Assembly (NCBI GenBank): GCA_007376295.1
Contig: VMGB01000001.1
Span: 349,969-413,968 of the forward strand
Direction of reading: 5' to 3'
Source: Parcubacteria group bacterium Gr01-1014_13
Lineage (GTDB): Bacteria; Patescibacteriota; Patescibacteriia; Magasanikbacterales; GWA2-37-8
Length of the DNA: 64,000 bases
The position numbers and the translations under genes are program-made. The notes below the pieces were generated by a model. That model saw only the letters and a program-made list of their open reading frames with translations. It was not told the origin of the DNA and did no database searches. Positions 33,301-60,072 of the stretch are shown piece after piece; position 1 is the stretch's first letter, and each line of letters opens with the position of its first letter.

Positions 33301-34437
33301 ATGAGACCAACAACAATCGCTGTAAATGCCCGCATGTTGCTAAAAAATCGACTTGATGGCATAGGCTGGATAGCCTACCACACCTTGAAACGCATGGTGC
33401 AGGAACACCCGGAAATTAACTTTATTTTTTTATTTGACCGAAAATACGACAAGGAATTTATCTTTGGTCCAAATGTTACTCCATATGTAGTTTTCCCGCC
33501 AACTCGCCATCCGGTTTTATACGTTCTGTGGTTCCAAATCGCTATCCCCCGTATCCTAAACAAACTTAAGCCGGATTTATTTTTATCCCATGACGGCCTG
33601 ATAACATTGGGAGCAAAATACAAACAACTCTCGGTTATCTGCGATATTAATTTTTTTCATTACCCTAAGGATCTCCCGTTTGCTTACCGTACTTTCTTTA
33701 ACTTTTTTTTCCCGCGCTACGCAGCCCAAGCAACTAGAATTCTTACCATATCTAACTTTTGTAAAAATGATATTGTAAAAAGCTATCACACTAACCCAGA
33801 CAAAATAGATGTAACATATGTTGGCGTAGAAAGCTCTTTTGCCCCACTCCCGGAAGAAAAACAAGCAGAAGTTCGCGCAAAACATACCGACGGAAAAAAA
33901 TACTTTATTTTTGTCGGCTCAATTCATCCAAGAAAAAATATTGTTGGATTGCTAAAAGCATTTGAACTATTTAAACAAAAAAGCGGCAGCGACTATAAGT
34001 TGGTGCTGGCCGGATCATTTTTTTGGGGCAAAAAAGAAATCAACAAAACCTTGGAAGAAATGAAATACAAAAATGATGTTATTTTTACAGGCCGTACACC
34101 TGATAATACTTTGCGCGAACTGCTCGCTTCGGCATTTTGCCTAACATTTGTTTCTTACTTTGAAGGTTTTGGTATTCCTCTAATCGAAGCGATGCGCTGC
34201 CATACTCCCATTATTTCCTCAAACGTAACCTCATTACCGGAAGTAGCTGGCGATGCAGCGATATATGTTGATCCGTTTAATATTGAAGATATGTGCCGCG
34301 GAATGCTTACCATGTATCAAGACGAAACTTTGCGCAATTCACTTATAAAAAACGGCATTGAACAGTATAAAAAATTTACTTGGGATGCTTCGGCTCAAGG
34401 TTTTTGGTCGAGTATACAAAAAACCTTATCCCAATAA
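33301..34437 (+). CDS. family-4 (GT-B) glycosyltransferase
   Basis: EX7E-type motif (EGFGIPLIEAMRCHTPII), FVGSIHPRKN. Confidence 0.8.
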   Translation: MRPTTIAVNARMLLKNRLDGIGWIAYHTLKRMVQEHPEINFIFLFDRKYDKEFIFGPNVTPYVVFPPTRHPVLYVLWFQIAIPRILNKLKPDLFLSHDGLITLGAKYKQLSVICDINFFHYPKDLPFAYRTFFNFFFPRYAAQATRILTISNFCKNDIVKSYHTNPDKIDVTYVGVESSFAPLPEEKQAEVRAKHTDGKKYFIFVGSIHPRKNIVGLLKAFELFKQKSGSDYKLVLAGSFFWGKKEINKTLEEMKYKNDVIFTGRTPDNTLRELLASAFCLTFVSYFEGFGIPLIEAMRCHTPIISSNVTSLPEVAGDAAIYVDPFNIEDMCRGMLTMYQDETLRNSLIKNGIEQYKKFTWDASAQGFWSSIQKTLSQ

Positions 34438-35445
34438 CGTTGTAGCTTCTCCGGCTTGTCTGCGCCGAATCCACTGCGCAGTTTTTAAAATTCCTTCACG
34501 AAGTGAGATTGTAGGATGCCAATCGATTGCCTTCTCTAACTTTTCGGCTATCATCTCACGGCGCACGGCAGTGACGGCCTTTGTTTCTTTTACTACATAC
34601 TCAAAAGGTCTTTCGTCGCCCAACAGCTCCCAAACCAATTTTGCCGCATCAACAATTTTTGTCGCTTCGCTTGTACCTACATTAAAATCGGTATTCATAA
34701 CTTGAACATCTCGTTGTACGGCCTTTTCTACAATTGCTACTGTTGCCGCCACAGCGTCATCAACATAGGTAAATGGTCTGGTTGCATCTTCGCCACCCAA
34801 AAGTTCAAGCGGGTATTGCCCAGATAAGACCTTCTCAATAAACGCAGGCAGAACATGAATATCGCCGGGAGTTGATCCTTTTGAATCTTCTCCAGGACCA
34901 TAGATGTTATGATAACGAAGAATTACATACGGCATCTGATACTGGGAAAAATATGCACGGCAAAAATATTCACCAGCTAATTTTGACATACCATATACAT
35001 TGGTTGGAAGGTAAGCTTTGGACAAATCTTCTTCACGATATGGAAACACCGTAGATCCTTGAAACGCCATGGAGCTTCCAGAATAGATAATACATGGTTT
35101 GCCAGCATCAAGCGCGGCTGGATAGACCGCAGCATCAATGGCCATATTTTCCTGAAGAATTTCTGCCTGATGCTCATGCATATAGGTTAGCGATCCGATG
35201 TTGGCAGCGAGATGCAAAATAGTATGCGCGTCAGCTAATGCGGATTTGGCAAAAGCAGAATCACGAAGATCGCCTTGTCTTATTTCAACAGAGCTATCAA
35301 ACTCAATACCGCGTTCTTTGGGATGTACTTTATCCACGACTACCACAGGATAACCAAGCTTACAAAGCTCAATAACTACGCGGCTGCCCACATAACCGCT
35401 CCCCCCGGTAACAATAATCTTTTTATCTTTCCCCAAGTCCTTCAT
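34426..35445 (-). CDS. NAD-dependent nucleotide-sugar epimerase/dehydratase (SDR)
   Basis: TGGSGYVGS and YGMSK. Confidence 0.7.
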   Translation of the reverse strand: MKDLGKDKKIIVTGGSGYVGSRVVIELCKLGYPVVVVDKVHPKERGIEFDSSVEIRQGDLRDSAFAKSALADAHTILHLAANIGSLTYMHEHQAEILQENMAIDAAVYPAALDAGKPCIIYSGSSMAFQGSTVFPYREEDLSKAYLPTNVYGMSKLAGEYFCRAYFSQYQMPYVILRYHNIYGPGEDSKGSTPGDIHVLPAFIEKVLSGQYPLELLGGEDATRPFTYVDDAVAATVAIVEKAVQRDVQVMNTDFNVGTSEATKIVDAAKLVWELLGDERPFEYVVKETKAVTAVRREMIAEKLEKAIDWHPTISLREGILKTAQWIRRRQAGEATTLLG

Positions 35446-36736
35446 ATGTAATATGACTATATGATTTTATAACTTTAGAATCAAACAAATGCCAACCATC
35501 AAAAAAGAACGCCTGCTGATTTAAATTTGGAAGTAATTTTTCAATATCAAAATATTCATACGACACATGGTTGTTCATAAAGAGAACACAATCCGCGCCT
35601 TGAAAACCTTCTTCCAGTGTGCACGGCGTAATACCAAGCCCAACAATTGCTTCTCTTTTTACCACGAAATCATGGCCATGTATATTTTTCGCACCCGCTT
35701 CCTGGAGACATTTTAGAAAATCTACTGTTGGAGAACCGCGCAGATCGTCGGTCTCTGGTCTTCCTTTAAATGCCAATCCGGAAACAAAAATTTTTGCGGT
35801 CGCTATGTCTTTACCATTGGCAGCGCAGTGTTTTCGAACCAGGTCAGCGGTAAATACAGGCAAAGATTCATTTACCTTACGTGCCATCGCTACCAACTGA
35901 GGTGTATATCCAGCGGTCGTAGCAAAATCAACTAGAATATGCGGATCTTTTTCCAAACAGGCTCCTCCCACAAATCCAGGTACTGGCACATTGGTTCTAG
36001 GATATCCGAAATTAGCTGCTTCTATGAGCTCTATAGCGTTCAAGCCGAGTTGACGAGACACCATAGCTACTTCATTAGCAAAAGCAAACGTAAGATCCCT
36101 ATATGAATTATCTAAAATTTTAATCATTTCAGCTGACTCAAGAGAAGAAACTCTAATGATAGTTTTAGTAACTTGAATAAAAATTTCCGAAGCTTTATTT
36201 AAGCTTTCTTCGTCTAGCCCGCCAATAACCTGTGGCAGATATTTCAATTCGGAAAGTGCTTTCCCTTCAATTGTACGCTCAGAGGCAAAAGCCAAATAGA
36301 AACGCTCCTTCTGATGTTTCTGTATCATGGGCAATACATAATTTCTGGTAAGCCCTACCGGTACTGTGCTGCGCAATACTACCAAACCACCCGGTCGTAA
36401 GTTCTTGGCCACATCGGTAACAGCGCTTTCAATATGGCTGATAATTGGTTTTTTAGTACTTTTATCAAGCGGTGTTCCTACGGATATAACAAAAACATCC
36501 ATCGCTATGTCTGCGGGAATGGTTGCGGAAATAAACAAATTTTTATTAACAAATTTTTTTAAAAGCACCTCGAGCCCTTTCTCATGGAAATGCGGCTTGC
36601 CATTTCTTAGCTGTTCCGCGAGCTCTTCGCTCTTAGTAATGCCGTAGACTTGGAATCCTTTTTCTGCAAGCACTACTGACAAAGTAAGCCCCACATATCC
36701 CAGCCCTACCACACAAATCTTTTTTGATTCCACCAT
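35423..36736 (-). CDS. nucleotide-sugar dehydrogenase (UDP-ManNAc/UDP-GlcNAc dehydrogenase, WecC/WbpA-like)
   Basis: VVGLGYVGL Rossmann, catalytic Cys (GGACLEKD), C-terminal NDP-sugar binding domain. Confidence 0.75.
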   Translation of the reverse strand: MVESKKICVVGLGYVGLTLSVVLAEKGFQVYGITKSEELAEQLRNGKPHFHEKGLEVLLKKFVNKNLFISATIPADIAMDVFVISVGTPLDKSTKKPIISHIESAVTDVAKNLRPGGLVVLRSTVPVGLTRNYVLPMIQKHQKERFYLAFASERTIEGKALSELKYLPQVIGGLDEESLNKASEIFIQVTKTIIRVSSLESAEMIKILDNSYRDLTFAFANEVAMVSRQLGLNAIELIEAANFGYPRTNVPVPGFVGGACLEKDPHILVDFATTAGYTPQLVAMARKVNESLPVFTADLVRKHCAANGKDIATAKIFVSGLAFKGRPETDDLRGSPTVDFLKCLQEAGAKNIHGHDFVVKREAIVGLGITPCTLEEGFQGADCVLFMNNHVSYEYFDIEKLLPNLNQQAFFFDGWHLFDSKVIKSYSHITYEGLGER

Positions 36737-41045: not shown

Positions 41046-42245
41046 TTATTTCATTTCGTATTTAAAATACAACACATCGCCTGTGGTGCTAAACTGATCC
41101 CTATTTTTCCAAAAATAGTTCCATGTACAAGGAATGTTATTTTTACACAGATTCATGATTGTAAAAAGAGTGGCGTAACGAAGGGTGCTTTGGATAATAT
41201 AAGGAGTGATCATAGCTAGAACTACCATACCAATAGCGAGATGCTTAAACCAACGTCCTTTAATATAAATGTTATATATACCATAAGCAGCTATTGGCGC
41301 AAACAGCCAGGCGGAAATAAATACCGTCCTGGCTATAAACATTGGCCAGCTATAATATGATAGACTTGATAGTATAACTGCTAACAAATAAATTTTTATA
41401 TTCTTATCCAAATTCCGCCAATTTCTTATTAAGAAATATAAACCAATTGCAATAAATAGCCACAAAATATTATAGGTACTGGCATGAACACCAAACCATC
41501 TAAGCAAAGTAAAATTTTCCGCGACGTATGCCTTCCAATTTTCTGTAAACCAATATGCTGAACTGTAATTAACATCCTGCCCTCTGAAAAAATTGACAAT
41601 AATTGTCGCAAACGGAAAAATAGAAAATCTAATAAAGTTAAACACTCTTTCTTTCCAAGAAACTTTATCGAGTAAAAATAAAATACCGACAAATAATGCG
41701 CCCATACTGCCACTTTCCTTTGTCAAAAGCCCAAACGCAACGGCCATACCGCCTAAATAAAGCCATGACTTATTCTTATCTTCCCACCATCTCCAACCAG
41801 CATAAAGGGTCAGCACAAACCAAAAGTATCCGCCCATATCCTGAACTTGAGTAAGCGCATAACGCACCATTGCATATCCGGTCATGACAGTAATAGCGGA
41901 AACAAAACCGATAAAATTATTTTTAAAAACTCGCCTAATTAATCCGTATGTTAAAAGTACCAGGCCATAATAAAAAACTATATTGGTCGTAATCAAACTT
42001 TGCTCCGGCGACATAAAAAATAGCAACTTTGCGCTTACTACCGCATAAAAAGGATTCAGGTACCTGGCGGGGAAAAAGGAAACATCGTATCCTCTAAAAA
42101 ATTTGATCAAATCTATAAAGCCCGATGTGTCGTTATTGGGATGAAAACCATATAAAAAACTAAAAACAACCAAATTAAGCGTGGCCAAAAAAGCTAGTGA
42201 AAAAATGATTTTGTGTTTTTTTATTTTTTCAAATAAAGCCACCAT
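41046..42245 (-). CDS. polytopic membrane protein, possible GT-C-fold glycosyltransferase
   Basis: 399 aa, ~11 TM helices, aromatic-rich. Adjacent to a GtrB-like GT2. No clear DE motif. Confidence 0.4.
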   Translation of the reverse strand: MVALFEKIKKHKIIFSLAFLATLNLVVFSFLYGFHPNNDTSGFIDLIKFFRGYDVSFFPARYLNPFYAVVSAKLLFFMSPEQSLITTNIVFYYGLVLLTYGLIRRVFKNNFIGFVSAITVMTGYAMVRYALTQVQDMGGYFWFVLTLYAGWRWWEDKNKSWLYLGGMAVAFGLLTKESGSMGALFVGILFLLDKVSWKERVFNFIRFSIFPFATIIVNFFRGQDVNYSSAYWFTENWKAYVAENFTLLRWFGVHASTYNILWLFIAIGLYFLIRNWRNLDKNIKIYLLAVILSSLSYYSWPMFIARTVFISAWLFAPIAAYGIYNIYIKGRWFKHLAIGMVVLAMITPYIIQSTLRYATLFTIMNLCKNNIPCTWNYFWKNRDQFSTTGDVLYFKYEMK

Positions 42246-42260
42246 ACTTTTTATATAAAT

Positions 42261-42971
42261 TTAAAATGATTTAAAACGCCATTTTAAAATTGTCCACAAA
42301 ACAACTAGTCCATCCCGATAACGAATCTTTTTTCCTTCCGCAAAAGTTCTCGGATTATAATGAATAGGAACTTCTGCTATTTTTAACCCCTTTCTAAAAA
42401 GTTTGCACAGTAATTCGACATCGTAGGCAAAACCATCGGCTTGAATTGGCAAATCGACCATATACTGTCGTGGAATTATTTTGTAGCAAGCAAAAAAATC
42501 CGTCCCCTGTCTATTATACAACAAATTAATACTGGCTATAATAAGTTTATTCCCCAAATATGTGAGCGGGTGCGGGTGAGACCAGCCTGTATGAATATTT
42601 TTTAATTCACTAAACCTAGCTCTGGATCCCAAACTAATATCGGCTATATTTTTTTGTATTGGCTCAATCAAGGCTTTTAGGTCCTGTGGGTCATATTCTA
42701 AATCAGCATCTTGAATAGTAATGTAATCTCCCGTAGCCTGCGCTATCCCCAGCTTTACTGATGCCCCCTTACCGCTGTTTTTTTCTTTAAAAACAACTTT
42801 GTAGGTATCGCCCAAACCTTTTAAAATCTCCCGGGTTCCATCGGTTGAACAGTCATCAACAATAATGATTTCTTTTTGGCAATCATTTAAAAAAACTTGA
42901 TCTACCCTTTTTAATATTTCAAGAATTGTATCTTTTTCATTGTAAGCAGGGATAATTATGGAAAGTTTCAT
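42261..42971 (-). CDS. polyprenol-phosphate sugar transferase-like GT2 (GtrB/DPM1-like)
   Basis: IIIPAYNEKDTI, IIVDDCSTDGT, DADLEYDP. Confidence 0.75.
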   Translation of the reverse strand: MKLSIIIPAYNEKDTILEILKRVDQVFLNDCQKEIIIVDDCSTDGTREILKGLGDTYKVVFKEKNSGKGASVKLGIAQATGDYITIQDADLEYDPQDLKALIEPIQKNIADISLGSRARFSELKNIHTGWSHPHPLTYLGNKLIIASINLLYNRQGTDFFACYKIIPRQYMVDLPIQADGFAYDVELLCKLFRKGLKIAEVPIHYNPRTFAEGKKIRYRDGLVVLWTILKWRFKSF

Positions 42972-43894
42972 AGCCGTTTACTTATTTCTTCCATCATCTT
43001 TGTAACCTTGCTTCCAAATTCGATACCGGTTAGCGGACGGCTATTTGTATTTATACACTCAATAAAATGTTCTAATTCATTTCTCAGCGGTTCACGCGCT
43101 GTTACTATAGGAACAACAGGCTGATCAATTACACCGGATAAAGGCAAGGTCGATTTATTTCCGTCCCGTACCGGATATGAATTTTTAATCCATTTTAATT
43201 TTACTTCTTCACGATCATTAAACAAAACCATTCCTTTGTCTCCCACTAGTGTTACTTTACGCACTTTTTCCGGCCAATACCAAGATGTGATTAGGTGGGC
43301 TGTCAGACCGCTTTGAAACTTTACTGTAACACCGGTAAAATCATCTTTGGCGGAAGAATTAAACGAACGACTTGCTCCCGAAATTTTTACAATCTTTCCC
43401 GGAGAAAATAAATACTCCACTACCGCCAGATCGTGTATGCCGGCATCCATGAAACTTCCGACATCAGCTCTTAAAAGTCCGCAATAAAGATTTTCTCCCA
43501 TTAAGTACTTAACTGTTCCCAGTTCGCTAATACGATTCTTTATATATCGAATCGAATCGTTATAAATATATTGAAAACCAACCATGAAAACTAAACTTTT
43601 ATTTTTCTTTAATTCTTTTTCTACTTTTTTGGCTTCGGCAACGCTAAGCACCATCGGTTTTTCAACCAAAACATGCTTACCGGCGCGAAGAGATTTAAGT
43701 ATTATTTCGCAATGAGTAGAGGGCGGGGTAGCAATGACAACACAATCAATTTCTTTGTTATTTATAATTTCATCCGTTTCTGCAGATGTATTAGAGGTTT
43801 TGACTAACTTTACACCAGGAATTTCCGGCAACAAACGAACATAGTGTTTTCCAAAATGCCCCAATCCGATTATCCCAAATTGCAGAATTTTCAT
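42968..43894 (-). CDS. Gfo/Idh/MocA family NAD(P)-dependent oxidoreductase
   Basis: N-terminal Rossmann IIGLGHFG with EKP motif (VLVEKP) and a C-terminal alpha/beta domain. Confidence 0.7.
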   Translation of the reverse strand: MKILQFGIIGLGHFGKHYVRLLPEIPGVKLVKTSNTSAETDEIINNKEIDCVVIATPPSTHCEIILKSLRAGKHVLVEKPMVLSVAEAKKVEKELKKNKSLVFMVGFQYIYNDSIRYIKNRISELGTVKYLMGENLYCGLLRADVGSFMDAGIHDLAVVEYLFSPGKIVKISGASRSFNSSAKDDFTGVTVKFQSGLTAHLITSWYWPEKVRKVTLVGDKGMVLFNDREEVKLKWIKNSYPVRDGNKSTLPLSGVIDQPVVPIVTAREPLRNELEHFIECINTNSRPLTGIEFGSKVTKMMEEISKRL

Positions 43895-43909: not shown

Positions 43910-46201
43910 TTATATTAAGATGTTTTTCATCCATTTATAGGAACGAGCTAATCCGTCTTGTAAACTGATCGATGGGTTATAGCCCACCATCGACTTGGCT
44001 TTGGACAAATCCGGACAGCGTCTGGAAGGTTCGTCTTGAGGGTAATTATCAGGATAATTAACTAAGTTTATTTCAACTTTTTTGTCTGGTACAACAGTTA
44101 CAAAAATTTCGGCTAGTGATTTCATATTAATTTCCGGACCATCGTTGCCAATATTAAACACTTCACCATTTTTGTCGGAAAGCAAAACTTTAAAGAAACC
44201 GATGATGGCGTCGGTAACATAACAAAATGTCCGTGTCTGATTTCCTTTATCGTGGACGGTTAGTGGCTTGCCTTCAATGGCCTGGCTTAAAAATGTTGGT
44301 ACGACTCTGTAGTCTTTAGCGCTCATCCCTGGACCATAGACATTAAAAGGACGGACAAATTTAACAGGAACTTGGTGTGTTTGGTAATAAGCCATGCACA
44401 AAGTTTCACCAAGACGCTTGGATTCATCATAGCAAGATCGTGGGCCGGTGGAAGAAACATTGCCCTTGTATGTCTCCGGAGTAGGAATAAACTTTGGATC
44501 CGGATCTCCGTAAATTTCACTGGAACTAAAATATAATACGCTGGTTACATTTTTCGCCAAAGCCAGCTTTAACATGTTATTTAAACCTAAAACTGTTCCT
44601 TCTATAGTTTCGATTGGGTATTTCTTGTAATAAACAGGTGAAGCAATGCCGGCGGCAGAAACAATATAATCAATCGGCATATCCAGAGAAATTGGCTCAC
44701 AGATGTTGTGCTGTTTAAACACAATATATTCGCTGTTCACTTCTTTGAGAAGATTGTTTTTCTTTCCGACAATATGATTGTCGAGCGAAAGTACTCGGCA
44801 AGGTGTTTTAAAATATTTTTTATTTAACAAGTCTATCGTCGCTGTTAGGTAGCTGCCGACAAATCCGGATCCGCCCGTAATCAAAACAGTTTTACCTTCG
44901 AGCGCACCCGCCACTTTCTCTATCCCTTTGGCAATAACATTTAAATCTTCTTCCACTACCCCACTAACAACTTGGGCAAATGGTACGGGGATAATAAAAT
45001 TCTCGAAATCAGAACATTTCTTAATAATAGAATCGGCAAAATTCCAAGCTAAAATTAGGATATAATCCGGAGGATTTTCTTTCAATTCAGTAGCGGCTTT
45101 TACCGGAATATGCGTACCCGGAGAATATAGCCCTTGTTTCCACACGCTATCATCAACAATATAATCCAAAGTTTCCGGTCCGATATTAAAGTAATTCAAC
45201 AAAGTACTGCCTTTTGCCGGAGCGCCATAACCAATAATTTTTTTGCCTTTAGATTTTAAGTCGCGCAAAAGTTCCAGCAAACGAGTTTTATTTTCACTAA
45301 TTTTGCCTTGAAAATTTAGAAAGGTTTCTATATCAGTCATCTTTCTTTCGTTTTCATGAGCGATAAATTTTTCTATGTTTGGCGATACAGTATGCTTCCC
45401 GCCTTTTCTCTGCACAAAGACACGCAGAGATCCACCGTGAGTATCTGTTTTTTCAACATCAAATACCTGCATTCCCAAACGATCAAATAAAGTACTGATT
45501 GTTTTTACAGTAAAATAAGAAAGGTGTTCATGATAAATAGTGTCAAATAAATTTTTCTCGATTAAATCCAATAAATAGTATGCTTCGATAACAAAAACAC
45601 CATCATCAGCCAATAAAGTTTTTACTCCTTCCACCACAGAATCCAAATCGTCTATGTGCGGAAAAACGCTGGTGGCTGTCATCAGAGATGCTTTGCCCTT
45701 TTCTTGCGCTATTTTACCAGCCACTTCCGGAGTAAAATATGCCGCCATTGTTTCTATACCATTTTCGGTTGCTCTCGCCGCAATATTTGCAGCCGGATCA
45801 ACGCCCATTATCTTTATACCCATTTCTTTATATGGACGCAGTAAAATTCCATCATTGCTGCCAATATCAACCACCAATGAATTGCTATCTAAAGCAAATC
45901 GCTGAGCCATTTCACTGGCAAAAGATTTGAAATGGGCCACAAAAACTGGTGAAGTGGATGAGCTATAGACATAATTACCAAAAAGAAGATCTGGAGATAC
46001 TACGTCTGTGAGCTGAACAAATGAACAGTCCTTACAAAAAGACAGCTCCAGCGGAAAGCTGGGCTCTGGTTTGTCTAGGTCTTCTGGTTTTAAGAAAGCA
46101 TTGGCCGGAGGCGTGCTTCCCAAACTTAATACTTTGGCTAAATTTGTTCCTTTACAGACCCTACAGTCATTTTTTGTTACACAGAGATCACCAAGAGACA
46201 T
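43910..46201 (-). CDS. fusion protein: TylCIII-like NDP-sugar C-methyltransferase + UXS/ArnA-like SDR (decarboxylase/4-ketoreductase family)
   Basis: N-terminal Cys4 zinc ribbon (CRVCKG...CKDCS), SAM motif VVDIGSNDGILL and a C-methyltransferase C-domain (residues ~1-430). The C-terminal ~320 aa carry TGGSGFVGS and the UXS-type CYDESKRLGETLC motif. Confidence 0.7.
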   Translation of the reverse strand: MSLGDLCVTKNDCRVCKGTNLAKVLSLGSTPPANAFLKPEDLDKPEPSFPLELSFCKDCSFVQLTDVVSPDLLFGNYVYSSSTSPVFVAHFKSFASEMAQRFALDSNSLVVDIGSNDGILLRPYKEMGIKIMGVDPAANIAARATENGIETMAAYFTPEVAGKIAQEKGKASLMTATSVFPHIDDLDSVVEGVKTLLADDGVFVIEAYYLLDLIEKNLFDTIYHEHLSYFTVKTISTLFDRLGMQVFDVEKTDTHGGSLRVFVQRKGGKHTVSPNIEKFIAHENERKMTDIETFLNFQGKISENKTRLLELLRDLKSKGKKIIGYGAPAKGSTLLNYFNIGPETLDYIVDDSVWKQGLYSPGTHIPVKAATELKENPPDYILILAWNFADSIIKKCSDFENFIIPVPFAQVVSGVVEEDLNVIAKGIEKVAGALEGKTVLITGGSGFVGSYLTATIDLLNKKYFKTPCRVLSLDNHIVGKKNNLLKEVNSEYIVFKQHNICEPISLDMPIDYIVSAAGIASPVYYKKYPIETIEGTVLGLNNMLKLALAKNVTSVLYFSSSEIYGDPDPKFIPTPETYKGNVSSTGPRSCYDESKRLGETLCMAYYQTHQVPVKFVRPFNVYGPGMSAKDYRVVPTFLSQAIEGKPLTVHDKGNQTRTFCYVTDAIIGFFKVLLSDKNGEVFNIGNDGPEINMKSLAEIFVTVVPDKKVEINLVNYPDNYPQDEPSRRCPDLSKAKSMVGYNPSISLQDGLARSYKWMKNILI

Positions 46202-46209
46202 ATTTTAAT

Positions 46210-46605
46210 TTATATAAGCTTCACACGAACAGTATCTTGTTCATAATCACCCTGACTTCTGGATTTTAAAGCAAAAACGAAACAAGTTGTATCTTCCAAA
46301 AACTTCATGGCATGAGCTACCATTGGTCGAGAAAAAACCATATCACCAGCTTTAACAATCTCTTTTTCCATCTTGGTTAAATCTGGGACACCATCAACTA
46401 GAGGTGCTTCATAATACTCCATGCTTCCGGTGAGTAAATAAACATGATGCCCGTCTTCTTTGTGGTAATGATTAGCGCGAATAGCACCCGGCTTAGAAGT
46501 CATCATTAGCATACTTTTAATAGTTGTCTGGCCATCATCGAGCAATTTGGTGATTCCACCTCTGTCATCAACAAATTCTGGAGCAATATTTCTTACGATT
46601 TGCAT
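46210..46605 (-). CDS. small cupin, WxcM/FdtA-like (NDP-4-keto-sugar 3,4-ketoisomerase family)
   Basis: 131 aa single cupin barrel with an HYHKEDGHH His cluster. Size and context fit the FdtA/WxcM N-domain family rather than RmlC. Confidence 0.5.
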   Translation of the reverse strand: MQIVRNIAPEFVDDRGGITKLLDDGQTTIKSMLMMTSKPGAIRANHYHKEDGHHVYLLTGSMEYYEAPLVDGVPDLTKMEKEIVKAGDMVFSRPMVAHAMKFLEDTTCFVFALKSRSQGDYEQDTVRVKLI

Positions 46606-46739: not shown

Positions 46740-48272
46740 ATGTCGAGACTACAACCAAAAATTCTTTTGGTTTACCCGCCTAACCAGCTGATGGCTATTG
46801 AAATGCCCCGGCCGGACGGTTCGCTCGGCCCATTGTACCTCAGCGGCGCTCTTCGCGACGCAGGGTTTGATGTTGATCTACTGGACGCTTCTGTCGGTAC
46901 AAACGAAGATAAGCTCAGTGATACGTTCCACAACCGAGTTCTCTTGCCGAACGGTCTAACCCGTATCGGCATGACCCCGGATCGCCTGCGGGAATACTTC
47001 GCCAAAGGCAACTTTGATATCGTAGGTATTAGCAGTAACTTCACCCCCCAGACCAAAATGGCTCTGGAGGTGGCAGGCATTGCTAAAGAAGTAAACCCCG
47101 AAACTCTAGTTATTGCGGGTGGTGTCAATGCCCGCGCACTTTCGGATCGTTTCCTAGCGAGTCGTTTGGTGGACGTGGTCATCCTCACCGAAGGTGAAAA
47201 AATCATCGTCGACCTGGCTCGTGCCTGGCAACAAAACACGTCGTTTGACAATGTAAATGGTATTAAATACTTGCGCACGGGATTCCCGGTGACTAGGCCA
47301 GTAACTCCGGAATTAATCTCGGATAATCTGGACAGTCTACCGATTCCAGCCTGGGATCTTCTACCACATGCCAAATACGACGAAATCAATAGTCCGCATG
47401 GTAGTATCATTAGCAGTCAGAAGCGGCGTTACGCCCCTATCATGACCTCGCGCGGCTGTCCGTTCCGCTGCGCATACTGCCACATTAGTGAAGAAAAAGA
47501 GGCCGGCTCCTTCACAGGCGATATCGGCTCATTGCGACTCAAATCGATTGATCGCGTTATGGAGGAACTAAAAAAATTACTCGCGCTTGGAGTAACCCAC
47601 CTCTATATCGAAGACGACAGTCTTCTCGCCAAAAAAGCTCGCATCAAAGATCTTTTTCATCGCCTTACCGGCCTTGGACTGAAGATTAGCGGTGTGAACG
47701 GCGTAAATCTAGTCCACTTTGGTATCCCGACTACAAACGGACGGCTAAAACCAGACGTTGGGTATCTGGAAATCCTAAAGGGTGCTGGATTTGATGAGAT
47801 TGTCTTCCCGGTAGAATCCGGAAATCAACGGATTCTTGATAAATACGCTACGTCTAAACTGCCTCTGGATAAACTTGATGTCATCCAACTCGTGCGCGAT
47901 GCGGTGGAAGTCGGAATTACCTGTCCAGTCAATATGATGGTTGGGTTCCCCGACGAAACTAAAGCCGAGATGAATGAGAGTGTTGAGCTGGCAAAGAAAC
48001 TCATCGATGCTGGTGCTCGATACGTAACGTTCTTTATTCCTATTCCGTTCCCCGGAAGCAAGCTATACCGTATGGCTATCGACGGGGGCCACTTGTCAGC
48101 TGATTTCGATCCGGACACGATGAATTGGAAAAATGCTGTCATGCAAAATACGACGGTGCCACCGGAGGAAGTGGTGGAATTCCGCGATTGGGCGTGGGAA
48201 ACAGTAAATAGCGAAGACTATAAGAAGAAACGTAAAGAAAGAGAAATTGGCGATCAGCGCTTTGCAAAATAA
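46740..48272 (+). CDS. B12-binding radical SAM enzyme (class B, cobalamin-dependent radical SAM methylase family)
   Basis: 510 aa with an N-terminal B12-binding-like Rossmann domain and a CxxxCxxC cluster motif (SRGCPFRCAYCH). The ORF is clearly GC-enriched (~50%) relative to flanking genes. Confidence 0.85.
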   Translation: MSRLQPKILLVYPPNQLMAIEMPRPDGSLGPLYLSGALRDAGFDVDLLDASVGTNEDKLSDTFHNRVLLPNGLTRIGMTPDRLREYFAKGNFDIVGISSNFTPQTKMALEVAGIAKEVNPETLVIAGGVNARALSDRFLASRLVDVVILTEGEKIIVDLARAWQQNTSFDNVNGIKYLRTGFPVTRPVTPELISDNLDSLPIPAWDLLPHAKYDEINSPHGSIISSQKRRYAPIMTSRGCPFRCAYCHISEEKEAGSFTGDIGSLRLKSIDRVMEELKKLLALGVTHLYIEDDSLLAKKARIKDLFHRLTGLGLKISGVNGVNLVHFGIPTTNGRLKPDVGYLEILKGAGFDEIVFPVESGNQRILDKYATSKLPLDKLDVIQLVRDAVEVGITCPVNMMVGFPDETKAEMNESVELAKKLIDAGARYVTFFIPIPFPGSKLYRMAIDGGHLSADFDPDTMNWKNAVMQNTTVPPEEVVEFRDWAWETVNSEDYKKKRKEREIGDQRFAK

Positions 48273-48279: not shown

Positions 48280-48311
48280 CGAGATAGAACCTCCCTATCT
48301 CGTTTTTTTTT
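48280..48311 (+). terminator. rho-independent terminator (CGAGATAG...CTATCTCG + T9) for the radical SAM gene
   Basis: The hairpin overlaps the stop codon of the convergent GT2 gene and is followed by T9. Confidence 0.65.
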
Positions 48312-49128
48312 GACTTTTTTCTATCTGCCAAACTTGCCAATAAAGAGAGAAGTAATAAATATAATTATAAAAACAGAGTTTCCATCCCGTCCAACTGGCC
48401 CATAATCCGTTTTTAAATTGGCCGAGAAAATCTTTAATCGGGTTAACGATTAAATAAAACACGATATGTGTTCTTACTTTTTTTGCGTAAGTAATCCATT
48501 TCTCTGGGGTCGTATTAAAACATTCATAAGTTACTAATTCCGGAAAAAAATATCTGGCATGAATCGGAGACCACATTTCTCTTTTTCTTTTAACGGTGGC
48601 TCGCGAGATATTGTTATAAAGCGGGCGGTGTCGCAGATATATTTCTAACTTTTCAGTTTTACCGTCAACCTCTCCCATCGCATGAGGAATACCGACAAAA
48701 CGCATAGCCGATTTTTTGAAAAGACAGGCTTTTTGAATTCCTTTGCAGCGTAAAGTTTTTTTGCCGTCCCACATCTCCCAATTAAATATAAATCTATTAA
48801 CGCCATTTTGATTATTTACTTTTTCCCTGATTAACGGAAAATCTTTTTCTTCCAGAGATTCATCGGCATCCATAAGCAGGATCCAGTCTCCCACTGCGGT
48901 ATTAAAACAAAAAACAAAATGCAGAGTAGAAATCCCGGCATGCGGCCGCACAAAAACTTTGTCGGTATATTCTCTAGCTATTTCCAAAGTTTTGTCTTTG
49001 CATTCGCCATCATGTACCACAATAATTTCATCCACTAAACCTTTAATACTGTCCAAGCATTTTCGCACAATTTTTTCTTCGTTGTACACGATAAGACAGG
49101 CAGAAATTTTTTGCTTGCTATTTTCCAT
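48295..49128 (-). CDS. family-2 glycosyltransferase
   Basis: CLIVYNEEKIV, VVHDGECKDKT, MDADE. Confidence 0.7.
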   Translation of the reverse strand: MENSKQKISACLIVYNEEKIVRKCLDSIKGLVDEIIVVHDGECKDKTLEIAREYTDKVFVRPHAGISTLHFVFCFNTAVGDWILLMDADESLEEKDFPLIREKVNNQNGVNRFIFNWEMWDGKKTLRCKGIQKACLFKKSAMRFVGIPHAMGEVDGKTEKLEIYLRHRPLYNNISRATVKRKREMWSPIHARYFFPELVTYECFNTTPEKWITYAKKVRTHIVFYLIVNPIKDFLGQFKNGLWASWTGWKLCFYNYIYYFSLYWQVWQIEKSQKKTR

Positions 49129-49150: not shown

Positions 49151-49873
49151 TTACAGCTGCTGCATTGCTTTGCTAGCGTCATTGATAAATTGTACCACAG
49201 TTTCTTTGGTACGGGCAGAGAGAAGACATTTGGCGAGTACTTCCGGAGGAATAGTGAGAATGTGGGCTCCGCTTTTACCCCACAAATCTACGTTTTCCGG
49301 ACTGCGTACAGACCCAACGATAATTTCAATGTTTTTATAGTTATGAAAATCAAGCCATTGTCTGACATCTTCGAGGACTTTTTGCGCTTGCTCTACACCA
49401 TGTTCTTCTGAAATTCTACCGGCAAAAATACTTATATTATGAATTTTTCTTGCGCTAGTCTTCGCCATACCTGCATTGATTGCTTTGGCGGCAAGTATTG
49501 CCTGATTAAAGGTCATCATTGCTGTCACATTTACAGAAATACCTTCGCTAACCAGTCTGTAAATAGCAGGTAAAAGAGAATTACCATTGCGATCAGTAAT
49601 AGTTACTTTTACGGTGATGTTTTCTGCCCAGGTATTGAATTTTCTTGCCTGATTAAGAACCTGTTCTAAATCATCGCTTGTCACCTCAACGCTTAGTGGC
49701 TGGGGCGCAATTAAACGAGCGATTTCGATCAATCTTTGTTTCATTCCTTCTTCTCCGCCGGAAACGCCGGATTTTAAACAAATACTTGGGTTGGTAGTAA
49801 CTCCATCACAAATCCCCCAGCTTACATATTTTTCAATTTCCTTGATGTCAGCGCTGTCGATAAATATTTTCAT
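49151..49873 (-). CDS. tal: transaldolase / fructose-6-phosphate aldolase family (short type)
   Basis: 240 aa TIM-barrel Tal/Fsa signature (FIDSADIKEI...GVTTNPS). Confidence 0.75.
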   Translation of the reverse strand: MKIFIDSADIKEIEKYVSWGICDGVTTNPSICLKSGVSGGEEGMKQRLIEIARLIAPQPLSVEVTSDDLEQVLNQARKFNTWAENITVKVTITDRNGNSLLPAIYRLVSEGISVNVTAMMTFNQAILAAKAINAGMAKTSARKIHNISIFAGRISEEHGVEQAQKVLEDVRQWLDFHNYKNIEIIVGSVRSPENVDLWGKSGAHILTIPPEVLAKCLLSARTKETVVQFINDASKAMQQL

Positions 49874-49892
49874 ATAAATTACTGGTTTATTA

Positions 49893-50429
49893 TTAATTGA
49901 TAATTTCCAAAATAGAAAGTAAATCTTGTATTCGTGAGTCTGGTTCTAAATGATCATTACGGCCATCAGAGACAATCACAGACCGAACCCCGGCAGCTCT
50001 GGCAGCCAGAAGATCATTATCCGTGTCACCTATCATATATGATGATGGCAAATGAATATTCCATTTTTTTGCCGCATCCAGTAGCATGCCTGGGAGTGGT
50101 TTTTTGCAGAGACAGCCGTCATTACGACGATGAAAGCAGATAAAAATATCATCAAATGAAAGATTTTTTACCTCAGCCATTATGCGCTCGTGTTGTTCCT
50201 GGGGTAATTTACCATATGCTATATCCGGTTGGTTTGTAACTAGGATACGAAGATATCCTAGCTTACCAACAGCTTCCAATACTTCCTTAATCCCTGACTT
50301 GAAACGGAATTCACTGTGATGATGTGGCGCAGTAAAACGAACCTTCTTTTCTCCAACAAAAAAATTTTCGCCCCGATCTATAACTTCATTCACAACTCCA
50401 TCGCGGTCAAAAAAGACAGCCTTTACCAT
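49893..50429 (-). CDS. gmhB: D-glycero-D-manno-heptose 1,7-bisphosphate phosphatase (HAD-IIIA)
   Basis: FFDRDGVVN, NQPDIAYG, and a CxC zinc motif (CFHRRNDGCLCKKP). Confidence 0.75.
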   Translation of the reverse strand: MVKAVFFDRDGVVNEVIDRGENFFVGEKKVRFTAPHHHSEFRFKSGIKEVLEAVGKLGYLRILVTNQPDIAYGKLPQEQHERIMAEVKNLSFDDIFICFHRRNDGCLCKKPLPGMLLDAAKKWNIHLPSSYMIGDTDNDLLAARAAGVRSVIVSDGRNDHLEPDSRIQDLLSILEIIN

Positions 50430-50435
50430 AATATT

Positions 50436-51020
50436 TTAATAACCACTTTGCTGTTTTAACAAATTTATCAATAAATGGTTAACTACTAATTGATAATCTT
50501 CAGTGTGAGGAGTTACCATGGATTCTTCGATTTTTGGCACAACTAAACAAGCGTCGGCAACCTGAGCAGCGACACCAGTCTCCCTGCCAACCACAGCCAG
50601 AATTCTTGCACCCACAACTTTGGCATATTCCATAGCCTTGACTAAATTTCCAGAAATATTTTGAGTTCCTCCGTTAACAGAGAAAATAAATAGGCAGTCT
50701 TTAGCAGTAAGATTATGCATTTCCAGTTGACGTTTAAAAACAGAATCCCAGCCTTCGTCGTTGGCTAACGCGCTAAACAAGCCCACGTTATCGGTAAGAC
50801 AAAAAGTAGAGATATTGGCAATTTTATTAAAGTCGTTGGTAGCGTGGGAAGCCGAAGCTCCTCCTCCACCTATACCCAAAAAGAAAACTCTGCCTTTGAG
50901 TTCGCGTGTAATAGATAAAATATCAGCCATTTTTTCCAAACGTTCTCGACTGCACTCATTGGCAATTTGAGCTGTTCTTTTTAGGTACTGATCTATAAAA
51001 TTGTGCTTGTCCATAACCAT
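50436..51020 (-). CDS. gmhA: phosphoheptose isomerase (SIS domain)
   Basis: RVFFLGIGGGGASASHATNDF and SVNGGT. Confidence 0.8.
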   Translation of the reverse strand: MVMDKHNFIDQYLKRTAQIANECSRERLEKMADILSITRELKGRVFFLGIGGGGASASHATNDFNKIANISTFCLTDNVGLFSALANDEGWDSVFKRQLEMHNLTAKDCLFIFSVNGGTQNISGNLVKAMEYAKVVGARILAVVGRETGVAAQVADACLVVPKIEESMVTPHTEDYQLVVNHLLINLLKQQSGY

Positions 51021-51115
51021 GAAAATTAAAAAAATATCAAAAAAACTGACCCCCTTAATTAATACTAACGTTACCTTTTTTTGCCAAGAATGTCAATAAT
51101 CGACCTGCTCTGTGC

Positions 51116-52111
51116 CTAGTCAAAATCAACCATTGTCTTTGCCCCTTCTTTTTCAAATCTAAAGGGCATTTCTTTCAAACCGTTGGTTTTCATCGCTTCA
51201 CGCACGCTTTTTCTCTCTTTATCTCCAGGACAATAAAATACCAAAAATCCACCGCCGCCGGCTCCCATAATTTTGCCACCCAAAGACCCATTTTCTTTGG
51301 CCAAAGCATAAAGCCTGTCAATATTTGGATCAGACATTTTTGTAGACATTGTTTTTTTGATTCGCCAATGCTCATCCATTAATCTACCAAAATTATCCAA
51401 ATTACCACCTTGAATAGAATTTTTAATTTCCATTCCAATCTCTTTAATCTGTAATAGCGATTTAGTCACATCACTTTCTTTTTTCTCAGCCGCAGCGCTC
51501 TGCTCGCCCAAAATTACCATAGCACTTCGAGAAATACCCGTATAAAATAATAGTAACTTATTTTGCAAATCTTCTACTGTTTCACGAGCAATTGCCGCAT
51601 CAGATACCTGCACGGCTCCATTTTTATCAATATTCATTATCGTAAAACCGCCATAGGCTGCCAAATATTGGTCCTGCTTGCCCACAGGCTTATGTAGTAA
51701 GTCAATTTCGATATGACAAGCTAGTTCTGCCAGTTCTTGAACTCCGGAACCCCTACGGGTTAATGTCTGCAATCCTTTTAAAAGTCCAACCAAATAAGAA
51801 CCAGACGAACCCATCCCTGTACCTGCCGGCACATCGGCCGTGGAAGCGATTTCGATTTGGTCTTTAATGCCATAATATTCCAAAGCAGCCCGAGCCAAAT
51901 CATGCTCCAGTTGCGCGGTATTTTCTACAATCTCAATACGAGAATATTTTACACGAACAAGCGAATCCAAAATCGGTCGATTGATACTTATATACATGTA
52001 CTTATCAATAGCGGCACTAAATACAAAACCGCCATGCTGTTTATAAAAAGCAGGCAAATCCGTACCGCCTCCGCCAAGCGGGATCCTAAATGGGGTGCGA
52101 GTTAAAATCAC
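51116..52111 (-). CDS. hddA: GHMP-family sugar kinase, D-glycero-D-manno-heptose 7-phosphate kinase-like
   Basis: GHMP motifs (PLGGGGTDLP; PAGTGMGSSGS). Embedded between gmhA and a heptose-1-P nucleotidyltransferase. Confidence 0.7.
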   Translation of the reverse strand: MILTRTPFRIPLGGGGTDLPAFYKQHGGFVFSAAIDKYMYISINRPILDSLVRVKYSRIEIVENTAQLEHDLARAALEYYGIKDQIEIASTADVPAGTGMGSSGSYLVGLLKGLQTLTRRGSGVQELAELACHIEIDLLHKPVGKQDQYLAAYGGFTIMNIDKNGAVQVSDAAIARETVEDLQNKLLLFYTGISRSAMVILGEQSAAAEKKESDVTKSLLQIKEIGMEIKNSIQGGNLDNFGRLMDEHWRIKKTMSTKMSDPNIDRLYALAKENGSLGGKIMGAGGGGFLVFYCPGDKERKSVREAMKTNGLKEMPFRFEKEGAKTMVDFD

Positions 52112-52115
52112 AATT

Positions 52116-52832
52116 TTATTTAATATTAGTAAAAAAATCTTGGGTCCGATGATAACCTTCTATGTTATCACAACCAAAAACATACTCTTCTTGGCTAAAT
52201 TGGTACGTGCCAATTTTAATATTGTCCCTCAAAAGCAATGGAAAAACATCCCAACCGAAATCATATTTCTGCCCCTCGGGAATATATTTAAAAATCTCCG
52301 GTTCAAGAACATATGATCCCGCGCTCACCAAACTGCTCATTTCATCGGCATTTTCCATGAACTCTTTGACGCTTCTATCAGAATTAAGCAAAACCCGACC
52401 CCGACCGATACCACTATTTTTATTTTTAGTCATGTCGTGAATAGCCATCGTACAAATAGTTTCATTTTTCTGATGAGCTAACAAAAGATTTTCTAAATTA
52501 CAATTGGTAACATTATCACCATACAAAAGAAAAAATGGTTCGGTAAATTCTTTTTCCACTTTCTTCACCGCCCCTGCGCTACCTAAGAGCTCTTCTTCTC
52601 TGGAATAAACAATGGACACGCCGAATTTTGAGCCATCTTGAAAATAATCCATTATTTGATCGGCTTTATAGCAAACATTGATAATTATTTCCCGCACGCC
52701 ATATTGGCGCGCCAAATCAATATTGTGCTCTAAAATGGGCTTGCCGTTAATCTCAACCAAAACCTTAGGAATATTATCAGTAAGCGGACGGAGTCTAGTA
52801 CCCTCTCCGGCCGCCAAAATCATGGCTTTCAT
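52116..52832 (-). CDS. hddC: D-glycero-D-manno-heptose 1-phosphate guanylyltransferase-like nucleotidyltransferase
   Basis: ILAAGEGTRLRPLTDNIPK, 238 aa with no LbH tail. Context with gmhA, hddA and gmhB. Confidence 0.65.
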   Translation of the reverse strand: MKAMILAAGEGTRLRPLTDNIPKVLVEINGKPILEHNIDLARQYGVREIIINVCYKADQIMDYFQDGSKFGVSIVYSREEELLGSAGAVKKVEKEFTEPFFLLYGDNVTNCNLENLLLAHQKNETICTMAIHDMTKNKNSGIGRGRVLLNSDRSVKEFMENADEMSSLVSAGSYVLEPEIFKYIPEGQKYDFGWDVFPLLLRDNIKIGTYQFSQEEYVFGCDNIEGYHRTQDFFTNIK

Positions 52833-59377: not shown

Positions 59378-60070
59378 TCATTTTTTCAAATTATCCATAA
59401 AACCTAAAACATCCTTGGCTTCCGGAAGATCATCTTCTGTATTTTCAATGTCTTGATGGTTAACTGCGCCCTCAAATTCCACCTCGACCCCTATATGTTT
59501 AGCTACGCTCTCTAAAGTTATGGCATTTTTCCCTCCTAACTCCACAATACCTTGACGGTCCAAATTTGATGCTAGCCAAGATACGCAAAAAGAGAGCGGG
59601 ATAAAAGAATAACGGCTTCTCTTATCTACAAAAACTTTTTTACCCTCCAGCATATCAACCAGTACCCCTTTCTTCATATTGTCGCCATAGAGCGCTCCGA
59701 GACGAACAATTAAATTATTGCCAAAATCACACAGCTTTTCTGCCGCAGCCTTATGTCTGCCATAAATAGTATCTGTCTGGCAGCGGGCGGAAACGGTGCT
59801 TATCTGTACAAACTTTTTAAATTGCCAACCGTACAACAGGTCAGCTGTTTTTTTTACTGTTTCCGTAAAATCTTCTTCGGGATGATTATTTGCCCAAAAA
59901 CGACCGGACGGCATAGCGCAATTTATAATTATATCGAACTTTTGCGCTTGTGTGGCGAGATAATTCTCTTTGGTTACTCCTACAACCGAATACTTTGAAG
60001 AATCAAGCAACTCTTTATATAGCGCGCTTCCAACATATCCTTTTGAGCCTATGACGGCTATGGAAAGCAT
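59378..60070 (-). CDS. short-form NAD(P)-dependent sugar-nucleotide reductase (RmlD-like SDR)
   Basis: IGSKGYVGS Rossmann and YGRHK (YxxxK), 230 aa. Confidence 0.55.
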   Translation of the reverse strand: MLSIAVIGSKGYVGSALYKELLDSSKYSVVGVTKENYLATQAQKFDIIINCAMPSGRFWANNHPEEDFTETVKKTADLLYGWQFKKFVQISTVSARCQTDTIYGRHKAAAEKLCDFGNNLIVRLGALYGDNMKKGVLVDMLEGKKVFVDKRSRYSFIPLSFCVSWLASNLDRQGIVELGGKNAITLESVAKHIGVEVEFEGAVNHQDIENTEDDLPEAKDVLGFMDNLKK

Positions 60071-60072
60071 AA

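Follow-up and report, generated by a model that had tools for sequence, protein, structure and literature searches.

To our knowledge, descriptions of branched-chain sugars come almost entirely from antibiotic biosynthesis and the O-antigens of a few pathogens, nearly all such sugars being derived from 4,6-dehydratase products, and the characterised members of the TylC3-type C-methyltransferase family that we know of all place the methyl group on C3 or C5 of a 4-keto sugar. Among pentoses, ArnA, RsU4kpxs, CalS9, AtmS9 and EvdS6 have been listed as decarboxylases releasing uridine diphosphate (UDP)-4-keto-xylose, the released 4-keto-pentose going to a second enzyme for transamination (CalS9/AtmS9) or for a proposed thiamine pyrophosphate-dependent C-branching toward eurekanate (EvdS6); pentose-derived C-branching was called unique to the eurekanate sugar of everninomicin D (PMC10338323). 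Here we describe a locus in which a C-methyltransferase and a decarboxylase-like enzyme are encoded as one chain. The window analysed, a 64-kb stretch of the genome of Parcubacteria group bacterium Gr01-1014_13, carries on its minus strand an open reading frame (ORF; 43910..46201) for a 763-aa protein that joins an N-terminal C-methyltransferase to a UXS-type short-chain dehydrogenase/reductase (SDR), together with an ORF (46210..46605) for a 131-aa cupin. The likeliest product of the cassette to which these genes belong is a methyl-branched UDP-pentose derived from UDP-glucuronate (UDP-GlcA), made with known kinds of enzyme in what would be a new combination.

The coordinates and lengths of both ORFs agree with those in a preliminary description of the window, and the motifs that it had quoted (VVDIGSNDG, TGGSGFVGS and CYDESKRLGETLC) were all found in the 763-aa protein. 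The cupin had been placed downstream of the fusion; because both genes lie on the minus strand, it is instead upstream in transcription, its TAA stop being followed after 8 nt by the ATG of the fusion. A gap of 15 nt then separates the fusion from a GFO/MocA gene, giving an operon-like packing. Pfam assigned to the 763-aa protein a Methyltransf_13 zinc ribbon (PF08421; aa 13-74, 3.5e-24), a Methyltransf_23 domain with the class I S-adenosylmethionine (SAM) fold (PF13489; aa 97-246, 3.2e-16), Methyltransf_14 (PF08484; aa 254-407, 1.5e-53, spanning profile positions 2-160 of 160) and an Epimerase/GDP_Man_Dehyd domain of the extended SDR type (aa 439-752, 3.4e-43), which together include every domain that had been put forward for annotation (Methyltransf_13/14 and Epimerase/GDP_Man_Dehyd).

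In searches against the Protein Data Bank (PDB), the N-half gave full-length matches to 4rv9 (1.8e-98), a D-mycarose 3-C-methyltransferase that we take to be MtmC, and to TcaB9 (3ndi; 8.8e-81). Its zinc ligands in the CxxC...CxxC arrangement (C13, C16, C56 and C59), the DIGSNDG motif of the SAM fold and the putative catalytic residues H182, Y223, E225 and H226 are invariant among 28 fused homologues, and the motifs FPHIDD and IYHEHLSYF are in register with the matching motifs of 4rv9 and TcaB9. The TcaB9 counterparts of the catalytic residues are H181, Y222, E224 and H225. The N-half is thereby identified as a complete predicted nucleoside diphosphate (NDP)-sugar C-methyltransferase, with zinc ribbon, SAM fold and nucleotide-binding Methyltransf_14 domain. 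This bears out its earlier assignment as TylCIII-like, which was to be abandoned if profile searches denied a C-methyltransferase; PF08421 and PF08484 were both matched strongly.

The C-half is closest to human UXS1, at 2.8e-59 compared with 6e-29 for the next-best SDR among solved structures. Its segments SSSEIYGDP, CYDESKR, RPFNVYGP and DYRVV align with STSEVYGDP, CYDEGKR, RIFNTFGP and DGRVV of human UXS1, respectively, its Rossmann motif GGSGFVG is in register there too, and GGSGFVG, S560-S-E562, Y591xxxK595, N620 and R632 are all invariant in the 28 fused homologues. Roles of the Ser/Thr, Glu, Tyr, Lys, Asn and Arg residues of UDP-GlcA decarboxylases have been addressed in a study of EvdS6 (PMC10338323), and the C-half keeps equivalents of EvdS6 T126, E128, Y150, K154, N179 and R279, with R632 corresponding to R279 and to ArnA R619 and a Ser present in the family where EvdS6 has T126. 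According to the EvdS6 authors, structures do not account for the choice between a keto and a reduced product (PMC10338323), and reading that choice from the triad residue was rejected here, Ser at the T126 position being uninformative. The C-half scored below the NCBIfam cut-offs for the RsU4kpxs-type synthase and for ArnA (model NF005998, 66 against a cut-off of 777), and its NCBIfam matches included no curated canonical-UXS model. We therefore use the label UXS-like, because the curated cut-offs for RsU4kpxs and ArnA were not reached, and on present sequence comparisons do not count the C-half as a member of either equivalog. The UXS/ArnA-like character given to this half in the preliminary description is upheld by the UXS1 match and the retained Glu, Asn and Arg of the decarboxylase subclass.

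The identical 763-aa protein was found on three independently assembled contigs, and a search of 5.8 billion proteins recovered upwards of 100 clusters (760-790 aa; 50-93% identity) in which the Pfam domains and their order are the same, drawn from NCBI, ENA, JGI and Logan data and all joined at the same junction. An alignment of 28 of these fused clusters showed many invariant residues in both halves and a junction without a linker (...FIIPVP.P..V / ..IVE.DL...). The AlphaFold2 (AF2) model of the protein has a mean pLDDT of 87.2 and a pTM of 0.85, with residues 405-430 at pLDDT ~89-95, and indicates a single rigid two-domain body. With three assemblies and more than 100 clusters of homologues bearing it out, the 763-aa ORF is a natural fusion, as had been proposed, and not a frameshift artefact. 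The converse, that a frameshift or a stop lost through sequencing error has joined adjacent genes, was the refutation foreseen in the preliminary description, and it retains a negligible probability: the methyltransferase and SDR are abutting separate genes in most genomes, and 13 of 44 split loci are divided by a single in-frame stop, such that one base error could imitate a fusion, yet the three assemblies and the shared junction oppose it, the modelled junction is ordered, and single in-frame stops at the junction are as frequent as chance would give (about one third). As the 13 of 44 junctions match that rate, programmed readthrough at split junctions was likewise rejected.

To place the fusion among its relatives, we drew on a scan of GTDB (one genome per species) that returned the best 80 of at least 597 confirmed stretches; loci from these, together with five loci fetched earlier, were re-analysed at the ORF level, and 56 loci were classified. 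The methyltransferase and SDR were separate abutting genes, in that order, in 44 of the 56, with gaps of 0-20 nt or overlaps of the form ATGA or TGATG, while seven loci were fused as methyltransferase-SDR, four as SDR-methyltransferase, and one was split in reversed order. Of some 60 full-length fusions suggested by the scan, most proved upon this re-analysis to be two abutting genes with merged tblastn segments. P0110 and P0113, two fusions of reversed order, have an SDR of the same UXS-like subtype (SSSEVYG, CYDEPKR, DGRVVPNF) ahead of the same methyltransferase. A relative at 65% identity has the pair split, whereas relatives at 51% have it fused, which shows that fusion and fission are evolutionarily labile. 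A search for the fusion in other genomes, advised in the preliminary description, has thus yielded reversed fusions in addition to the clusters of like order. The carriers among the best 80 stretches comprise groups of the candidate phyla radiation (CPR), Woesearchaeota, Nanoarchaeia, Alpha- and Gammaproteobacteria, Magnetococcales, Nitrospinaceae, Elusimicrobia, Omnitrophota, Verrucomicrobia and Prochlorococcus single-cell genomes, as well as the isolates Mycobacterium sp. E796 and Sorangium sp. So ce1078. The fusion is a lineage-specific state of a widespread, mostly split cassette, and the novelty rests with the cassette and not with the fusion.

An exhaustive search of 1.84 billion representatives for further fusions of the methyltransferase identified a triple fusion SDR-cupin-methyltransferase (P0245, 879 aa), a fusion of the methyltransferase with an RmlB-like 4,6-dehydratase (P0243, 775 aa) and one with an RmlD-like reductase at its N-terminal side (P0261, 701 aa). 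Also recovered was a fusion of two methyltransferases (P0256, 808 aa). Fusion of the methyltransferase and SDR may couple the producer of a labile keto-sugar to its consumer. Channelling between the two halves, which the preliminary description had taken the fusion to imply, is made plausible by the linker-free, ordered junction and the pTM, whereas a fixed tunnel is disfavoured by the occurrence of both domain orders and of split forms; functional split forms and both orders argue for co-stoichiometry or complex formation over any one fixed tunnel.

All ORFs within 6 kb of the methyltransferase/SDR pair were clustered across the 56 loci with no prior labels. The cupin was found in 39 loci, in 38 of them within 600 bp, and was always co-directional and directly upstream; the GFO/IDH/MocA oxidoreductase occurred in 32, in every case contiguous, co-directional and directly downstream of the SDR. 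Enzymes of glycosyltransferase family 2 (GT2) lay near the pair in 41 loci, a close homologue of the 236-aa GT2 of the window being within 2 kb in 16 of 55 loci, and a QdtB-like DegT aminotransferase in 10 of 56. Clusters C5, C8-C11 and C13 were rejected as partners, as they correspond to antisense shadow ORFs of high-GC genomes. The core of the cassette is cupin, methyltransferase, SDR and GFO/MocA, often with a DPM1/ArnC-like GT2; the membership of the GFO oxidoreductase and of the polyprenyl-phosphate-type GT2 is a link that the preliminary description did not contain. GFO without DegT was seen in 28 loci, DegT without GFO in six and both in four, a distribution compatible with two alternative, not strictly exclusive, fates of one keto intermediate. 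In a woesearchaeote locus (L003), GT2, cupin and fusion stand alone among housekeeping genes.

The best NCBIfam match of the window's GFO enzyme is UDP-GlcNAc 3-dehydrogenase (1e-35, below cut-off); assigning its function through solved relatives was rejected, the best of these (3c1a) being uncharacterised. Against the PDB, the window's GT2 matched an archaeal Dol-P-Man synthase (5mlz, 1.2e-20) and ArnC (1e-12), and the GT-C protein had no solved relative by sequence search; synteny of the GT-C gene extends to L001 and L087. In variant loci (e.g. L005), the aminotransferase is nearest to C3 enzymes (QdtB at 4.8e-88, 7n63, DesV, WlaRG and WbpE), compared with only 1e-32 for the C4 enzyme ArnB, and the formyltransferase of these loci is nearest to the ArnA N-domain. 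A gene of the UDP-glucose/GDP-mannose dehydrogenase family (UGDH) stands in the same co-directional gene run as the fusion.

These neighbourhoods bear on a different use of the SDR half, as a 4-ketoreductase or epimerase acting on a C-methylated NDP-6-deoxyhexose of the mycarose or virenose kind, with a 4,6-dehydratase such as the GMD of the window supplying the 4-keto substrate. Methylation of 6-deoxyhexoses fed by a 4,6-dehydratase is the standard setting of this methyltransferase family, the SDR falls below the cut-off of every curated NCBIfam equivalog, and the window holds the GMD and other SDRs, all of which speak for such a role. We nevertheless regard it as improbable, given the wide margin by which human UXS1 leads the solved relatives, the retained decarboxylase-subclass Glu, Asn and Arg, the ArnA-type formyltransferase of variant loci and the lack of a 4,6-dehydratase from the conserved neighbourhood (56 loci). 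The preliminary description had offered this GMD as partner of the fusion, a pairing that we do not retain: the gene is distant and adjoins its own stand-alone C-methyltransferase, cupin paralogue and short SDR, with which it probably forms a separate locus of the guanosine diphosphate (GDP)-6-deoxy-C-methylhexose type (59378-63119). The substrate of the fusion is more likely UDP-GlcA from the UGDH of the same operon than the GMD product. A 4-keto-forming SDR together with this cupin and a C-methyltransferase recurs in three nucleotide-sugar settings. The small ORF beside the GMD gene was also considered as a third cupin and rejected (hhalign probability 2%).

The cupin family comprises 166 clusters of 125-139 aa on contigs matching those of the fusion, with invariant residues that include R15, R43, N45, H46, H48, D51, H53, H98, R116, Y121, E122 and D124. 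The cupin fits the motif G(X)5HXH(X)4[H](X)6G, in which His replaces the usual Glu, and the motif-2 His is also present; all four canonical metal-ligand positions are consequently His (H46, H48, H53 and H98). A family profile matched the Mn-binding oxalate decarboxylase OxdC at 3e-11, FdtD at 0.004 and FdtA at 0.05 in the PDB. In Pfam the window's cupin reached Cupin_2 only, at threshold, and 17 of 28 relatives gave sub-threshold matches to the FdtA family PF05523 (best 1e-6). The top 25 Foldseek matches of its AF2 model (pLDDT 96.6) are FdtD, QdtA, FdtA and HCAN_0198 (TM 0.67-0.75, the leading ones 0.70-0.75; E ~1e-6), followed by RmlC epimerases. By its place along the sequence, the invariant H46-x-H48 is a candidate counterpart of the catalytic pair H49/H51 of FdtA, a protein of similar length. 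Taken together, these data describe a distinct sequence family, possibly metal-dependent, with a ketoisomerase-like fold; the earlier FdtA/WxcM-like designation consequently holds for fold and not for sequence.

We propose a pathway that would begin with provision of UDP-GlcA by UGDH. The SDR half, with NAD+, would oxidise C4, decarboxylate and release UDP-4-keto-xylose, like ArnA, RsU4kpxs, CalS9 and EvdS6, whereupon the cupin would move the keto group from C4 to C3 in an FdtA/QdtA-type reaction, perhaps metal-assisted. The methyltransferase half, using SAM, would methylate the carbon adjoining the keto group via an enolate, and the keto group would be reduced by the GFO enzyme, which in variant loci would give way to a C3 aminotransferase of the QdtB kind and a formyltransferase like that of ArnA. 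Lastly, the small GT2 would put the sugar on polyprenyl phosphate, and the GT-C enzyme would transfer it outside the membrane. Use of a polyprenyl-phosphate carrier, as in the Arn pathway, is probable because the GT2 is nearest to Dol-P-Man synthase and ArnC and is followed by a PMT_2 GT-C. We infer every catalytic step from sequence comparisons. The pathway is supported by the intact catalytic residues of both halves, by the abutting or fused state of methyltransferase and SDR in the 56 loci from many phyla, in both orders, by the contiguous cupin and GFO genes, by the UGDH of the same operon, by the ordered junction and by P0243 and P0245, which join the methyltransferase to other 4-keto-sugar-generating enzymes. 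In its general form, a C-methyl pentose made from UDP-GlcA, we consider the proposal rather probable. Our confidence is evenly balanced for the fuller statement that the 763-aa protein is bifunctional and that the cassette turns UDP-glucuronate into a methyl-branched UDP-pentose for surface glycosylation.

Isomerisation before methylation, with the methyl group going to C4 or C2 of a 3-keto sugar, is a preference that we hold with somewhat less than even confidence. It is favoured because the aminotransferase is of the C3 type, the GFO enzyme matches a 3-dehydrogenase and P0245 has the order SDR-cupin-methyltransferase, and because a C3-methylated 4-keto-pentose would leave the cupin no centre to isomerise or epimerise. 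The serious rival to this order is the classical route, in which the methyltransferase would methylate C3 of UDP-4-keto-xylose directly, as TylC3, TcaB9 and MtmC do with 4-keto-hexoses, the 4-keto group then being reduced by the NADH of the SDR, in a second half-reaction like that of UXS, or by GFO to give UDP-3-C-methyl-xylose or -arabinose, and the cupin having another or an accessory role. The methyltransferase half is very near to 3-C-methyltransferases of 4-keto substrates, with identical catalytic residues, fusing two enzymes is most economical for consecutive steps, and the minimal archaeal locus L003, which has no separate reductase, fits reduction by the SDR. On the other hand, with C3 quaternary and C5 a CH2 after such a methylation, nothing would remain for the cupin, which is the most tightly linked partner and in P0245 is fused between SDR and methyltransferase, and the variant loci possess a C3-type and not a C4-type aminotransferase; we thus judge direct C3 methylation unlikely, if well worth weighing. 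Methylation at C5 of UDP-4-keto-xylose is more doubtful by far. NovU is a C5-methylating member of the family, and a reaction of this kind would give a UDP-4-keto-6-deoxyhexose for the cupin to epimerise or isomerise and for GFO to reduce, the net change being COOH to CH3. The cupin would thereby receive a normal substrate, since C5 becomes a stereocentre, and RmlC-type epimerases are its second-best structural matches; yet the path to sugars that 4,6-dehydratases make directly would be wasteful, and no data point to C5 specifically.

Several observations weigh against the proposed pathway, with isomerisation ahead of methylation. Release of a keto-sugar by the decarboxylase cannot be read from sequence or structure, and the favoured order demands a regiochemistry new for this methyltransferase family, whose known targets are C3 and C5 of 4-keto sugars. 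The cupin is nearer in sequence to metal-binding oxalate-decarboxylase cupins than to FdtA, and the window's cupin had no match to PF05523 at E<=1. Within 6 kb, a UGDH-family gene was found in only ~10 of the 56 loci; the cupin was missing in 17 and GFO in 24, partly from cut contigs. GFO has no close characterised relative, its best solved one being the uncharacterised oxidoreductase 3c1a. A full-text literature search found no characterised pair of C-methyltransferase and decarboxylase and no C-methylation of a UDP-4-keto-pentose, in a body of texts that covered few subscription-journal papers and in which absence is no proof; the preliminary description, which knew of no characterised fused enzyme of this type, meets no counter-example there.

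The genetic tie of a C-methyltransferase to a UDP-glucuronate decarboxylase-like enzyme, through fusion in two orders and through abutting genes in over 40 species, speaks for a route to methyl-branched pentoses that is as yet undescribed. We tentatively suggest, with less assurance than for the order of steps, that the cassette makes an undescribed C-methyl-branched UDP-pentose (in the aminotransferase variant, a garosamine-like 3-amino-3-deoxy-C-methyl-pentose) through a metal-dependent cupin 3,4-ketoisomerase and a TylC3-type methyltransferase whose target would be C4 or C2 of a 3-keto sugar, and that the sugar might pass by a lipid carrier to the surface of CPR bacteria, DPANN archaea and abundant marine bacteria including Prochlorococcus. 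The cassette sits in surface-glycan clusters of CPR and DPANN organisms, whose envelopes are essentially unknown, and of ecologically dominant marine bacteria. As a defined set of four or five enzymes, it bears on the structure of the sugar, on whether a UXS-type enzyme hands its keto intermediate to a partner and on the role of a four-His FdtA-like cupin. The fused proteins also call for caution in annotation, as they currently bear only generic labels such as 'NAD-dependent epimerase/dehydratase', 'NDP-hexose 3-C-methyltransferase' or 'UDP-glucuronate decarboxylase'.

Table 1. Features of the 64-kb window: the cassette, the GMD locus and further genes discussed in the text.
Feature	Position	Strand	Basis or remark
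Cupin, 131 aa	46210..46605	-	First cassette gene; AF2, Foldseek, family alignment
C-methyltransferase half, aa 1-412 of the 763-aa protein	44966..46201	-	Pfam, PDB matches
UXS-type SDR half, aa 413-763; presumed UDP-glucuronate 4-oxidase/decarboxylase	43910..44965	-	Human UXS1 match, invariant residues
GFO/IDH/MocA oxidoreductase, presumed keto-reductase	42968..43894	-	Pfam; below-cut-off NCBIfam
GT2, 236 aa, polyprenyl-phosphate sugar synthase type (DPM1/ArnC-like)	42261..42971	-	Pfam, PDB; 4-nt overlap with GFO gene
PMT_2-type GT-C glycosyltransferase, 399 aa, presumed user of lipid-linked sugar	41046..42245	-	Pfam PMT_2 1.5e-07
UDP-glucose/GDP-mannose dehydrogenase family (UGDH), presumed UDP-GlcA supplier	35423..36736	-	Pfam, all three UGDH domains
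GMD	62145-63119	-	16 kb from fusion
ORF without family, 129 aa	61755-62144	-	
Stand-alone C-methyltransferase	60541-61749	-	38% identical to fused methyltransferase half
Paralogous cupin, 149 aa	60073-60522	-	hhalign 98.6%
Truncated-looking short SDR, 230 aa	59378-60070	-	
UDP-glucose/GDP-mannose dehydrogenase paralogue of UGDH	29472-30875	-	
SDR following the paralogue	28559-29467		
SDR following UGDH	34426-35445		
GT2/PMT_2 GT-C fusion, 737 aa	37665-39878	-	
B12-binding radical SAM enzyme	46740-48272	+	
GT2	48295-49128		
Sugar-phosphate gene run	49151-52832	-	

The closest named genome (L087; GCA_035473115.1), 82% identical and syntenic over more than 20 kb, bears the label Candidatus Udaeobacter (Verrucomicrobiota). 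Every other close relative belongs either to CPR (Magasanikbacteria and others) or to DPANN, and the Udaeobacter label may reflect a binning or labelling problem or horizontal transfer. The two dehydrogenase paralogues of the window lie within 8 kb of each other and are each followed by an SDR gene, which suggests that more than one uronic-acid-derived sugar is made in the cluster. Also present is a 737-aa fusion of a polyprenyl-phosphate-type GT2 with a PMT_2 GT-C, which would place the maker and the user of a lipid-linked sugar on one chain and is kept in L087 as a 747-aa protein. Between a GT2 gene and the cupin lies a gene for a B12-binding radical SAM enzyme, whose best curated match is a P-methyltransferase family (1.3e-40, far below cut-off). 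The stretch that holds it has a GC content of 0.45, against ~0.38 nearby. The gene is not at the same position in L087 but does occur in the exact-match contig L086, which gives it the look of a recent insertion into the glycan cluster. Beyond it, a run of genes for a transaldolase/FSA, HAD phosphatase, SIS isomerase, GHMP kinase and nucleotidyltransferase, found as the same module in L087, suggests an NDP-heptose pathway (GmhA/HddA/GmhB/HddC-like) that has its own supply of sedoheptulose phosphate.

Compared with described systems, the fused methyltransferase half has the three-domain architecture and catalytic residues of TylC3, TcaB9, KijD1 and MtmC. Those enzymes stand alone in antibiotic pathways and act on deoxythymidine diphosphate (dTDP)-4-keto-2,6-dideoxyhexoses fed by a 4,6-dehydratase; the fused enzyme, unlike them, has a decarboxylase partner, a presumed UDP-pentose substrate and a setting among cell-surface glycan genes. 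The cupin resembles the 3,4-ketoisomerases FdtA, QdtA, FdtD and HCAN_0198 in size (~130 aa), fold and, apparently, an HxH pair on the same strand motif (RxxHxHK), and the partnership of QdtA-type enzymes with a QdtB-like aminotransferase is mirrored in the variant loci. It differs from them in being only ~20% identical, in its four invariant His, in a profile that prefers Mn-cupins and in the UDP-pentose substrate presumed for it.

ArnA of E. coli, which is both UDP-GlcA decarboxylase and UDP-Ara4N formyltransferase, offers a parallel in architecture, as it too joins a C-terminal SDR of the decarboxylase type to an N-terminal enzyme that acts later in the same pathway. The pathway of ArnA (with ArnB, ArnC and ArnT) likewise shares an ArnC-like polyprenyl-phosphate GT2 and a GT-C transferase with the cassette, and the variant loci add a formyltransferase similar to the ArnA N-domain. 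The partner fused here is, however, a SAM-dependent C-methyltransferase and not a formyltransferase, and the protein is accordingly not a member of ArnA; its SDR is nearer to UXS (3e-59) than to ArnA (~1e-14), a cupin and a GFO enzyme are added, and the aminotransferase is of the C3 and not the ArnB type. Garosamine, the 3-deoxy-4-C-methyl-3-methylamino-L-arabinopyranose of gentamicin, is a xylose-derived pentose with a C-methyl group beside a C3 amino group, which the product of the aminotransferase variant would resemble if its methyl were at C4. Garosamine is formed once glycosyl transfer has taken place, through the action of a GFO-type dehydrogenase, an aminotransferase and a cobalamin radical-SAM methylase, and not on a nucleotide sugar by a TylC3-type enzyme. 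Finally, EvdS6, RsU4kpxs and CalS9/AtmS9 belong to the same SDR subclass as the C-half and share its residues, but none of them has a known methyltransferase partner; and whereas the branching of the EvdS6 pathway brings an acetyl group onto the carbonyl carbon, the reaction proposed here would bring a methyl group onto the alpha carbon.

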